64,000 nucleotides of DNA from Eledone cirrhosa (lineage: Eukaryota): NCBI GenBank assembly GCA_964016885.1, contig OZ024751.1:20088001-20152000 (forward strand). The letters run 5' to 3'. A program made the translations under genes and the position numbers. Below the pieces are notes generated by a model. The model made no database searches and was not told the origin of the DNA. It saw nothing but the letters and a program-made list of their open reading frames with translations. Positions 2,961 to 24,830 of the stretch are shown here, piece after piece. Every line of letters starts with the position of its first letter. Position 1 is the first letter of the stretch.

Positions 2961-3771
2961 TTCTTCTGGTTTTATAATTTCACAAAGTTTTACCAATAGA
3001 GATAGAGTCGGTTTCTAACATAGACACAAGACTCTCTCATTGGAATTTACACAACATCAACTAGGTAGATATGTATGTATGCATGCATGTGTAGATATGG
3101 ATGTTATTGTATGAGTGGATGTGGATGTTTTGAGTTGTATGTGTGCATGTGTATATGCTTTGTATCTGTACATGTGTATATGCAGTTATTAGATGCAAAA
3201 TTTGTGGAATGTTTTATATATTTTTACTGTTCCATTAATGGATTGTACTTGTAGTTTCCTAACTAGTTGTGTTATTTCTGTTCCTGTGAAGCCTAGCTTC
3301 TCAAGATTTGTATTGAGGCAGTTACTAACATATCCCAGTGCCCCAACAATCACAGGCATAAATCTGAAGGTGTAATCAGGGTGGAGTATCTGCAAATTTC
3401 TCATCAGTTCTGCATAAATATTCACCTTTTCACTAATCTTTGATATTATATTGGCATCTGCTTGGCAGCTAATTTCCACTACTGTGGATGTTTTCTTCTC
3501 CCTGTCCCATATCATAATATCTGGTCTGTTATGCCTGCATTTTATTGGGGTTTTTACTGGAACATTCCACCAGTACTCTTTCATATTATGTACATGGATG
3601 TCTTCCACATTGTTGTAGCTTTTAATGTGTTTATTATCGGGGCTATCTTTTTTACTAACTGCATTGTACAGTTTTTTGGCCACTATATCATGCCTCATAG
3701 GTAGATAGTACCGCGATGACATCTTTGGACAGCTGCTGATGACATGGGTGATATCCTCGATGTTAGTTCTA
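2961..3771 (-). mobile_element. 5'-truncated non-LTR retrotransposon with restriction-like endonuclease (R4/Dong-like)
   Basis: ORF C-terminus plus ~230 bp 3' UTR ending in a (CATA)n tail. The 5' truncation abuts (TA)n. Confidence 0.8.
3189..3770 (-). pseudogene. C-terminal zinc knuckle plus RLE domain of a non-LTR retrotransposon ORF
   Basis: In-frame [10 protein letters not shown] (HxxxxC half of the CCHC knuckle), RHD motif, WWN..V, NRPDI, VVEISC, K...Y: the PD-(D/E)xK RLE signature. Confidence 0.85.
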
Positions 3772-3820
3772 AATATATATATATATATATATATCCATTA
3801 TATATATATATATATATATA

Positions 3821-16029: not shown

Positions 16030-16890
16030 TACAATTGTAAAAGTCATGAGTTCGATACTCAGTAGCACGTTTTGTCCTTCAGCAAGACACTTTACTTCAC
16101 GTTGCTCCAGGCCCCACGGGTGGGAAAAAAAATGAGTTATACCTCTAATTCAAATAGCCAACCTTGTCACAAAATATATCCCACTGAATCTCCCTGAGAA
16201 CCACTTTAAAAGTAGACAGACATGTCTGTGGAATACTCAGCCACTTGCATATTAATTTCACAAGCAGGCTGTTTCGTTGATCAAACACGGACACACACAC
16301 GCACACATACCCCTCAAACGCTGAATCTCCCTGAGAATTGTGTTAAGAGTATATATGTATATGGGATACTCAGCCACTTGCATGTTAATTTCACAAGCAG
16401 GCTGTTTCGTTGATTAAACAGGGACACACAAACCCCTCACACGCTGAATCTCCCTGAGAATTAAGTTCAGAGTAGACATGTCTGTGGAATACTCAGCCAC
16501 TTGCATGTTAATTTCACGAGCAGACTGTTTCGTTGATGGAACACAGACACACGCTGAATCTCCCTGAAAATTATGTTAAGAGTAGACATGTATATGGAAT
16601 ACTCAGCCACTTGCATGTTAATTTCACAAGCAGGCTGTTTCGTTGATCAAACAGGGACACACATACCCATCACACGCTGAATCTCCCTGAAAATTATGTT
16701 AAGAGTAGACATGTATATGGAATACTCAGCCACTTGCATACTAATTGCAAGAGCAGGCTCTTTCGTTGATCGAACGCGGACACACGCTGAATCTCCCTGA
16801 GAATTATGTTAAGAGTAGACATGTCTGTGGAATACTCAGCCACTTGCATACTAATTTCATGAGCAGGCTCTTTCGTTGATCGAACGCGGA
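16030..16890 (+). repeat. CORE-type SINE whose 3' tail is amplified into a 6-copy ~110-137 bp minisatellite
   Basis: CTGAATCTCCCTGA at 16184, 16321, 16444, 16554, 16677 and 16786, downstream of the SINE head TTGTCCTTCAGCAAGACACTT. Confidence 0.85.
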
Positions 16891-17639
16891 CACACACACA
16901 CAAAACACATATACACACATTCTTACCCATCATATACATATACATACACCTTATAGCGATGTAGAATCCTAATTGTTATTCATTTGATTGTAGTATATTT
17001 AATTGTTCGGTTTAGATGTTTGGTGAATGAAGCCTTGTCTATGTAGAGTTATATTGTTGGTGCGGTTAACTATCGTTTCTCCCTTTGTGTTATATACCCA
17101 GACGTGGGAGATTTTAAAGATTAAAGAATGTTAAGTGTTTTCATAGCTTTTGTTAATGTATTCTTCACGAAGAATACACCATCTTGCTTTTGTGCTCAAC
17201 TATGAATCTCATTGTAATATTTAAGAGGAGAATTTGTTGTTTATATCAAGTGTTTCTTTGTATATACACCGTTATATATCCGGTGTGGGAAGTATGAATA
17301 TACTCGTATGTTGGTTCAATTTCAATGATTCGAAGAGGTAAATTATGTTAATTGTTATACCCTAAATCTGAATTGTTATTTAGAAGTCTGGAAGTGGAAC
17401 TTGAGTACCTTATTTAAAGATGATACAGTGGGAGGGAGCATTTACATGGTTGTTTGACCTGTCTAATGTTTGGGGGTTAGATAGGGATAAGGTAGGGGTC
17501 CTAATCTGAGAAGACAATTTTGTCTTCAATGAAAGGTTCTGCCCTAAAAATGTTTAAACCCATTGTTTCGCAAAATGTATCGTGGGACTTCAGAAGGAGA
17601 CATACGATATATTACGCTGTGTACTAACTTTGTATATAT

Positions 17640-21940: not shown

Positions 21941-22286
21941 TTTATCTATGATTAGGGGCGGTTCGTTAGAAGATCGGTAGAGCGTCGGACAAAATGTTTT
22001 ACCGTATTCGCTTTACTGGAAAAACAAAAAAACTCAAAACAAAAAAAAAGCAAACAAACGAACTGGCGTTGACATAATCAACTCTCCTTTTGCTTTCGAT
22101 ATTGAATCGATATATGTGTATGTGTGTACATGTATATATGTGTACATGTGTATGTATGTATCTAGGTGTATCTCTATATATGAGTATATGTATGTTTATA
22201 TGTATATATCTAGGTATATGTGTATATGTATGTGTATGTGTATTTAACGACGTTTCTTTGTTGTTTTATGTCAGTCTTTGTGAGTG

Positions 22287-22486
22287 ACATTGTCTTACAA
22301 ATTGTTTGTTGAAGTCTTTAGATAGGTTTTATTTCTGGCGGATTTTATGGCTGCGGTTGTGTATATATATATATACATATATCTATATATATATATATGT
22401 GTATATATATATACAACCACAGCCATAAAATCCGCCAGAAATAAAACATATCTAAAGACTTCAACAAACAATTTGTAAGACAATGT
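22287..22486. repeat. 74 bp inverted repeat around a (TA)n core
   Basis: 22287-22360 mirrors 22413-22486 with 2 mismatches. Confidence 0.9.
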
Positions 22487-22493
22487 ACATACA

Positions 22494-22624: not shown

Positions 22625-22762
22625 CCAAAAGTTTAACAAAGTTCATTGATTAATCAATGAATAAAGTTTTACAATAGATTAGAAGCACTCAACAGAGGTT
22701 TTCTGGACTTATTAATATTACTTCAAAATATTAATAAATATAGACATTCATGTGATCAAATA

Positions 22763-22828
22763 TATTTTATTATACATATTTCAGAGGTACTAGGCTATTT
22801 CATCAGTACGTCCTCATCAGATAAAATA
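22763..22828 (-). ncRNA. Hammerhead ribozyme (C.C class)
   Basis: TATTTTAT-CTGATGA-GGA-C-GTACT...AGTAC-C-TCT-GAAA-TATGTA-TA-ATAAAATA. Confidence 0.8.
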
Positions 22829-22869
22829 AATTGTCTGATATACCTCAACTGTGCTGATTCAATTCCAGT

Positions 22870-22944
<75 letters not shown>

Positions 22945-22994
22945 TATATATATATAATATCTATATATATATATATATATAATATATATATATA

Positions 22995-23455
22995 AATTTC
23001 GTTTCATTCTTTTCCATTTATGGTTTTCGGTGCGCCCGGCCGACTAACTCCCTCGATATGCAAATTAGGCTGCTCAGCCGTTAATATGCATAAGGAAAGT
23101 ATATACTTTCAGACGTTCGACCATCTGACAGAAAGGTATACGATGCTGACGATAGCTAATAAGCTTGAAACTAGTACATCGTTCCTGTATCAGTGTTGAA
23201 CAAAAAGGTGACGATGGTTGCCTGAACACTGTACGGCTTAATTCGGGATGTTTGTTTACAAACAAACCAAACATGATAATAAATGTTCGGTAAACCCATA
23301 CGTACATATACATATGTGTGCATGTATGTATATATATACATACTACTGTACGTCTGTATACATATATGTATGTACGTATACATACATACTTACATTTAAG
23401 TACCAGCCGTACTAAGAGTGAGAAATAGAATTTGGTTTCATTATTTTCCATTTAT
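22995..23455 (+). mobile_element. Retrozyme-like monomer (434 nt unit plus 27 nt terminal redundancy) in (TA)n
   Basis: AATTTCGTTTCATTCTTTTCCATTTAT at 22995 recurs with 2 mismatches at 23429; one internal HHR. Confidence 0.75.
23140..23182 (+). ncRNA. Minimal hammerhead ribozyme, family H4
   Basis: ACGATG-CTGACGA-T-AGCT-AATA-AGCT-T-GAAA-CTA-GTA-CATCGT, with palindromic ACTAGT stem III. Confidence 0.85.
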
Positions 23456-23480
23456 ATATATATATGTATATATATATATG

Positions 23481-23583
<103 letters not shown>

Positions 23584-23593
23584 GTATATATAC

Positions 23594-23800
<207 letters not shown>

Positions 23801-23864
23801 TATATATATACATATATATATATGTATATATACATATATATATATGTATATATACATATATATA

Positions 23865-23896
<32 letters not shown>

Positions 23897-23931
23897 CATA
23901 TATATATACATATATATATATGTATATATAC

Positions 23932-24819
23932 ATAAAAACAAATAACGAAACGAAATTAAATTTCGTTTCGTTTGTAACTCACTTTTGTATGACTGACGCT
24001 TAAACAATTAAGTTAAAAATGTACATCCACATATGTATACTGAAATACTAGTATGCATATGAATACACACACGTGTACATATGTAGATGTACCGAGTTTT
24101 TCACTGGACAGTTTACTGTGAGTGTCCAGCTATTCTGTCTGGCTTTCTGGAGAATAGAGGAAAGGTGTTTCCTCGAAAACCAGTATGACTCTAAAAACCG
24201 GTTTGTCTGTGTGTTTACATACAGAATAGCTGGACACTCACAGTAAACTGTCCAGTGAAAAACTCGGTACATCTACATATGTACACGTGTGTGTATTCAT
24301 ATGCATACTAGTATTTCAGTATACATATGTGGATGTACATTTTTAACTTAATTGTTTAAGCGTCAGTCATACAAAAGTGAGTTACAAACGAAACGAAATT
24401 TAATTTCGTTTCGTTATTTGTTTTTATCGTCTCCGCTGAACCGGTATGTACTCACGCTCTATGCAAATTAGTCTGCCCACTACTAATTTTCATAGAAAAA
24501 GCATATAACGATATGTGCTTTTACGATTCTCTAGAAAGGCCGGAAGATAGGTAAATATTGCTGATGAGATGTAACAACATCGAAACTAGTCCAATATTCC
24601 TTGTCTGGCTTTCTGGAGAATAGAGGAAAGGTGTTTCCTCGAAAACCAGTATGACTCTAAAAACCGGTTTGTCTGTGTGTTTACATACAGAATAGCTGGA
24701 CACTCACAGTAAACTGTCCAGTGAAAAACTCGGTACATCTACATATGTACACGTGTGTGTATTCATATGCATACTAGTATTTCAGTATACATATGTGGAT
24801 GTACATTTTTAACTTAATT
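23932..24819 (+). mobile_element. Retrozyme-like element: 1.47 tandem copies of a 466 nt unit plus a 207 bp inverted arm, in (TA)n
   Basis: 24136-24353 is repeated at 24602-24819; 23932-24138 is the reverse complement of 24221-24427. Confidence 0.9.
24554..24598 (+). ncRNA. Canonical-core minimal hammerhead ribozyme, family H4
   Basis: AATATTG-CTGATGA-GATGT-AACA-ACATC-GAAA-CTA-GTC-CAATATT. Perfect stems I (7 bp) and II (5 bp); GUC site at 24591. Confidence 0.92.
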
Positions 24820-24830
24820 ATATATACATA

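Follow-up and report, generated by a model that had tools for sequence, protein, structure and literature searches.

A hammerhead retrozyme family in Eledone cirrhosa that very probably moved in the manner of a non-autonomous Penelope-like element

Introduction

The window analysed here, a 64,000-nt stretch of contig OZ024751.1 from Eledone cirrhosa, holds a 434-nt unit with an internal hammerhead motif, followed by the first 27 nt of a second unit. The question that this locus raises is how such a piece of DNA came to lie there, and whether its short overlap records a circular RNA template. An earlier note on this DNA had described it as a diverged sister of a 466-nt unit in the same window, with a structure under selection and a circular template.

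According to the accessible part of a Xenopus preprint by Li, Clavereau and Pollet (2026; 10.64898/2026.07.22.740005), animal retrozymes are argued to be non-autonomous derivatives of Penelope-like elements (PLEs). In the portion of PMC8557442 used here, PLE copies form partial tandems, are truncated at the 5' end, bear an inverted arm and have a tail at one end only; certain clades target (TA)n, and MRC1 is treated as a non-autonomous PLE. The available text of PMC11167929 reports that purified PLE protein cut both strands at AT-rich DNA in vitro and that, with mostly uncut RNA as its template, it initiates cDNA at two positions within the RNA, by which the tail is defined. We propose that the 434-nt unit is very probably a non-LTR retrozyme with a hammerhead motif that moved like a non-autonomous PLE, and that the copy in the window probably owes its place in an (AT)n tract to the RT-endonuclease of a PLE.

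Results

The features of the locus are collected in Table 1. The two copies of the direct repeat, the second at 23429-23455, are 25/27 identical at a spacing of 434 nt, compared with a best match of 21/27 in 200 shuffles of the unit, and the description of an imperfect 27-nt repeat that bounds a single unit with a type I hammerhead inside it is accurate. Since both mismatches lie in the 3' copy and are absent from most sister ends, they are read as decay. The unit has a GC content of 0.38, and its longest sense frame is 59 aa, so that protein-coding capacity is absent; its 125-aa antisense frame has no Pfam match, and no RT plus GIY-YIG reading frame occurs in or adjoining the unit. Compared with the majority of its 29 nearest relatives, the window copy differs at 11 positions, one of which (23189) is a private change that breaks a distal stem I pair of the ribozyme. 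The flagged single copy is an ordinary, mildly decayed family member.

Table 1. Features of the retrozyme copy and of its flanks, in positions of the window.
Feature	Position	Strand	Remark
(AT)n target tract, left flank	22872..22994	.	
5'-truncated retrozyme copy (a 434-nt unit and 27 nt of the next)	22995..23455	+	3' stop is the family's second fixed 3' end
27-nt repeat, 5' copy, unit start	22995..23021	+	read as a chance 5' truncation point
Conserved hairpin with ATGCAAAT	23057..23092	+	fold z -2.6, sister z -4.0
Type I hammerhead, extended stem I	23125..23193	+	core CTGACGA at 23146
Long-range helix, 5' arm	23231..23237	+	pairs with 23406-23412
TA-rich long hairpin	23298..23379	+	both families have one
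Tail, reaching from fixed 3' end 1 (about 23395-23398) to end 2 (23455)	23399..23455	+	includes the terminal hairpin and the 27-nt repeat in its 3' copy
(AT)n-rich target tract, right flank	23456..23931	.	common to the neighbouring insertion
Sister 466-nt insertion, inverted arm	23932..24141	-	stops at its own end 2, with tail
Sister 466-nt insertion, direct arm, partial tandem	24136..24820	+	stops at its own end 1, without tail; hammerhead core at 24561

The host genome of 3.0 Gb is rich in microsatellites. A DNA search for the family gave 3,548 candidates, and all 40 that were scored are 94-100% identical over q1-306, where q1-q461 are positions counted from 22995; the window copy itself shares 94-97% identity with the 39 other scored copies over these first 306 nt. 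Exact ribozyme cores of the 434-nt lineage number 24,691 genome-wide, a pattern for both families with a stricter upstream context has 23,430 matches and a 22-nt anchor in the 3' half has 37,061, with zero control matches in each case. The lack of an alignable genomic family, which the earlier note had considered as a ground for rejection, is therefore not the case. The family comprises at least four subfamilies with units of 420-520 nt, which form head-to-tail tandems of 2-7 units with the unit length depending on the subfamily; most copies are dispersed and shorter than two units. The 466-nt sister family, whose 40 scored copies are 99-100% identical and which forms long arrays, is younger than the 434-nt lineage. 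The two are 57-62% identical with all modules colinear, and the shared layout claimed previously is borne out, as all landmarks are present and in the same order at about 60% identity. Contigs from four sequencing runs, whose kind is unrecorded, contained family variants only. A further sister subfamily, diverged and with a unit of 470 nt, makes up a long array at C1:95.64-95.68 Mb (L263, L269-L276), in which higher-order periods of nine units and of six units (2817 bp) are visible.

In the hammerhead motif, stem I (ACGATG/CATCGT) is formed by 23140-45 and 23177-82, stem II by 23153-66 and stem III by the palindromic ACTAGT at 23170-23175; GAAA is also present, and the cut is predicted after 23176. 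The core is intact in 39/45 copies that were anchored outside it. The stems had been described as completely different from those of the 466-nt unit and yet paired: the pairing holds, with the changed pairs compensated, but three of the six stem I pairs and two of the five stem II pairs are identical. That comparison had also omitted the closing pair of stem II beside the core, which is U.U in the 434-nt lineage and G-C in the 466-nt unit. No Rfam family matched the window copy or its sister at the gathering score. At E<=10, the ribozyme of the 466-nt unit matched HH9 (38.9 bits, E 8.9e-8, cut-off 52) and that of the 434-nt copy matched no hammerhead family; miRNA-like matches under the cut-off were discarded as AT-hairpin noise. 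The palindromic stem III would probably make dimers the form in which the ribozyme cleaves most efficiently, and the window copy presumably could not release a unit-length circle alone because it carries a single ribozyme. As the parts of the sources used here report, one of nine predicted retrozymes of the Xenopus preprint cut in vitro, and in the axolotl HHR_Amex2, which has U.U at the base of stem II, 22% of the monomer was cleaved within one hour, the dimer being more active (PMC7229834).

Upstream of the ribozyme, both families have kept ATGCAAAT followed by TATATA (23100-23105 in the window copy). We take the former to be an octamer and the latter to deserve the label TATA, that is, possible promoter elements by prediction.

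Several lines of comparison bear on whether the RNA structure is conserved. In an ungapped alignment of 14 hand-picked ribozyme variants of both families, 93% of the cells pair, compared with 33-49% in slid controls, and in 8 of the 22 pairs both partners have changed. Taken by itself, this number of two-sided pairs did not beat its shuffle control (160/500), and most of these changes separate the 434-nt from the 466-nt family and may thus represent few events; two pair changes arose within families, where A-U became U-G in stem I and, in stem II of the sister, A-U became U-A. In the long-range helix 23231-37/23406-12, a C-G pair of some subfamilies is replaced by U-A in others (46 vs 17 of the 66 units read), and in the 466-nt sister the helix is different again with the pairing kept. 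Folded as a circle, the 434-nt monomer gives -123.5 kcal/mol vs -91.9 +/- 4.7 for 30 shuffles (z -6.8). Four natural monomers, each set against 30 shuffles, reach z -6.0 to -10.8, so that the circularised folding suggested before finds them highly self-paired. A circular fold that scores well is a prediction, and circularity does not follow from it. Taken together, the ribozyme covariation, the covarying long-range helix and the colinear folds agree with the view that structure is under selection, the stem changes being compensatory where non-compensatory changes had been named as contrary evidence; as far as aligned sequences can tell, a structure conserved across both families is well supported.

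The ends of the insertions were evaluated in an unselected sample of 59 loci (71 rows), namely all insertions with the 3' anchor that lie within the initial 19.3 Mb of contig C1. Three rows that continued into the next unit were dropped, and the remaining 68 arm ends were classified by eye. Two fixed 3' sites about 57 nt apart accounted for 61/68 arm ends, which were followed by AT-type repeats: 27 stopped at end 1 (about q396-408), 34 at end 2 (about q455-461) and seven elsewhere. Where head-to-head insertions had the anchor in both arms, 11/12 had one end of each kind, one was interrupted and none had two like ends; in the 466-nt sister family, 9/9 head-to-head insertions had one end of each kind, including that at 23932-24820. 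Any target-site duplication is masked by the (AT)n flanks. By analogy with PLEs, the combination of fixed 3' ends, scattered 5' ends and a one-sided tail corresponds to the PLE "tail" footprint.

The 5' ends, unlike the 3' ends, are scattered. All 29 nearest copies extend upstream past the start of the window copy (q1), and raw reverse-strand counts of AT-flanked 5' junctions are about even over four 30-nt windows: 152 at q163-193, 133 at q111-141, 126 at q61-91 and 130 at about q1-29. An apparent excess of 5' ends at unit positions 1-35, about fourfold in the 59 loci, was set aside given these flat genome-wide counts (130 vs 126-152), and is a modest excess at most. No clear pile-up occurred at the ribozyme cut site, with 7-8 of 38 listed loci within 2 nt and about six expected, and none was seen at the candidate start site that follows the TATA-like box. 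The suggestion that one unit plus a short overlap points to a circular template is not upheld by these data, and the overlap was rejected as evidence for a circle, since partial tandems and read-through of genomic tandems would give the same overlap. The 27-nt overlap is one 5' truncation point in a partial tandem.

Many PLE families occur in the genome: a search gave 10,597 GIY-YIG candidates, and 150/150 of those scored were above the cut-off; RT or GIY-YIG domains were found in three PLE frames. The PLE L124, whose intact 1096-aa frame includes an RT domain, repeats the arrangement seen in the retrozyme family: its inverted end lacks a tail, and its direct end has one of 33 nt, which ends in CATTTTCCA before (AT)n. 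Partial tandems, of which L124 is an example, are a product of autonomous PLEs too (PMC8557442). An autonomous PLE with the retrozyme's own ribozyme or terminal sequence was not found among 30 GIY-YIG loci and follow-ups, a small fraction of the 10,597 candidates. When the 3' ends of 11 PLE loci were compared by local alignment, the signals were scattered and weak, and the best of them (z 3.3-4.4) were not repeated across copies of any PLE family. PLE fragments lying beside family copies at seven loci (L030, L095, L108, L135, L151, L161, L162) were rejected as parents: they had inserted separately or were nested, and AT runs or ribozymes of another kind intervened. Further ACTAGT cores (233 and 241 matches), followed as a lead to a parent, were decayed family members or unrelated singletons at the loci examined.

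At L239 (4048-4650 and 5385-6622) and L098 (1023-1800), retrozyme arms lie head to head with truncated PLE coding fragments, and at L026 (990-3135) an arm lies in line with such a fragment, in each case with no AT run; these junctions name no partner, because the PLEs belong to different families. By eye, ribozyme-like motifs with non-canonical cores, in which the palindromic ACCGGT replaces ACTAGT, were observed in several PLE families downstream of the frames of L061-L085 and at the ends of L122 and L124.

Elsewhere in the window, eleven more hammerhead-like motifs of other families were observed (9197+, 10987+, 20483+, 22820-, 29421+, 31618+, 39949-, 40107+, 41998+, 54898- and 55090+), of which that at 29421 is identical to the ribozyme downstream of the PLE frame in L090, L125 and L126. 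Directly upstream of the retrozyme copy, across the (AT)n tract, lies a different hammerhead-bearing fragment (22625-22870, minus strand) with weak matches to the 3' regions of the PLE loci L067 and L078, and at 22280-22490 an inverted repeat of about 75 nt per arm surrounds an AT run, possibly two facing element ends. Tandem repeats occupy 16302-16896 (periods of 110-123 nt) and 34444-34838 (149 nt). A 202-aa frame at 3189-3797 on the minus strand had no significant Pfam match; by eye, we presume that it resembles the endonuclease end of a retroelement.

Discussion

The insertion anatomy can be accommodated by a mechanism in which a PLE protein would nick AT-rich DNA and cDNA would begin at one of two internal sites flanking the terminal hairpin of the RNA. 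From there the enzyme would copy in reverse across the uncut ribozyme and past the unit junction, and would detach at a variable point. For the window copy, the outer site would have been the point of initiation, and synthesis would have ended after 461 nt, when 27 nt of a second round had been copied. As the copy crosses its own cut site and the unit junction, its template would have been uncut or religated, that is, an uncut tandem read-through transcript or a religated circle. Several points count against a PLE mechanism: no autonomous parent turned up among the loci searched, the tail is longer (about 57 nt in the 434-nt lineage, about 70 nt in the 466-nt sister) than the 30-40 nt given in the accessible part of PMC8557442, and certain arrays grow at the DNA level too.

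Among known systems, the closest are the metazoan non-LTR retrozymes of Cervera and de la Pena (2020; PMC7229834), especially the axolotl Rtz353/HHR_Amex2. In the portion of that report considered here, these share a short AT-rich unit that codes for no protein, is repeated in tandem and carries a single type I hammerhead, as well as a self-paired fold, the occurrence of two sister families side by side and the presence of PLEs in the same genome; HHR_Amex2 has the same two-pair stem III and U.U mismatch at the base of stem II. By contrast, the unit of 434 nt is slightly above the 170-400 nt RNAs reported there, most copies here are dispersed insertions of one to two units, and the present family is characterised here at the DNA level. 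The two-fixed-end footprint seen here has no description in the same portion. The retrozymes in the accessible part of the 2026 preprint likewise occur as monomers, dimers and multimers and together with PLEs, and use of the PLE enzyme is proposed for them. The evidence there is homology to PLE terminal repeats (pLTRs) and co-distribution in vertebrates, whereas here it is insertion anatomy, and a homologous pLTR was not found among the loci searched.

The family also resembles Poseidon PAc (PMC11167929) and Naiad/Neptune/Chlamys and MRC1 (PMC8557442), as far as the available parts of these sources describe them, in its partial tandems, 5' truncation, inverted 5' arm and one-end tail, and PLEs of both sources in their AT-rich or (TA)n targets and in a ribozyme upstream of the start sites. 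It differs from them in its longer tail (57-70 nt) and in having no RT/GIY-YIG frame. Compared with the canonical metazoan type I hammerheads in the portion of PMC4209133 used here, helix I of about 6 bp, helix II of about 4 bp and the short palindromic helix III, suited to dimer cleavage, are alike, and the position of both families under the Rfam thresholds (the sister against HH9 included) is different.

Whether the template had to be a circular RNA of one unit, which arises when the transcript cleaves itself twice and is ligated and which is copied by rolling-circle reverse transcription, is a separate question, and we regard this reading as possible but rather unlikely. Copies read through the cut site without clear pile-up, and young arrays share array-private variants across all units or both arms (9/9 units in the C3 array, both arms of L257, and L163), as a circle would predict; however, uncut transcripts of homogeneous tandems predict the same patterns, and the shared private variants fit a circle or a homogeneous source array equally. 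The monomers fold well as circles (z -6 to -11), although the score comes largely from local hairpins that form in linear RNA too. Related retrozymes are circular in coral, mussel and axolotl according to the consulted part of PMC7229834. In the present genome, by contrast, some single insertions contain units of different sub-lineages (L248, L262), and an excess of A>G changes, considered as a putative RNA-editing mark of circles, was weak at 49 vs 24 (p 0.02, at sites that are not independent). The alternating A-B units of L244, which might have been taken as proof of a dimeric circle, are an exact 842-nt duplication of already decayed units.

Two other origins concern the unit itself. It might be the severed end (pLTR) of an autonomous PLE, scattered as 5'-truncated fragments and not an independent element, given that the pLTRs of the PLEs L090, L125 and L126 carry similar ribozymes, that one PLE pLTR ribozyme combines U.U at the base of stem II with a palindromic stem III, and that retrozymes are derived from pLTRs in the accessible text of the 2026 preprint. 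Yet the units of 420-520 nt follow each other head to tail with no coding sequence in between, no examined copy ran into a PLE frame through its own pLTR, and several subfamilies evolved separately; this reading is largely refuted and in our judgement very improbable. An even lower probability attaches to a satellite or minisatellite that spreads by DNA-level recombination with the ribozyme motif as a passenger. Exact block duplications do occur in arrays (L244, and 4-unit and 9-unit repeats), and a 2817-bp period extends over >14 kb at C1:95.67 Mb, but DNA-level expansion makes none of the dispersed copies below two units, fixed 3' ends, 5' truncations and inverted arms observed here. Mobilisation of a non-autonomous retrozyme by PLE machinery accordingly remains our preferred reading.

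Conclusions

PLEs have been proposed before as the movers of animal retrozymes, on the grounds that the two occur together and that pLTRs are similar. With its two fixed ends and single tail, the footprint of this family, which encodes no protein, links such mobilisation to PLE chemistry and names RNA sites for testing; in the literature, as judged by titles and the openings of abstracts, no description of such a footprint in retrozymes was found. More tentatively, and with a probability that we place on the low side, an enzyme dimer of a PLE might copy one circular retrozyme RNA into both ends of an (AT)n break from the two fixed sites astride the terminal hairpin, in a branched fold that compensatory change has kept between families only 60% alike. 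If this is true, the insertions would be a natural read-out of how PLEs form tails and tandems, and the tens of thousands of them would provide a minimal test substrate.
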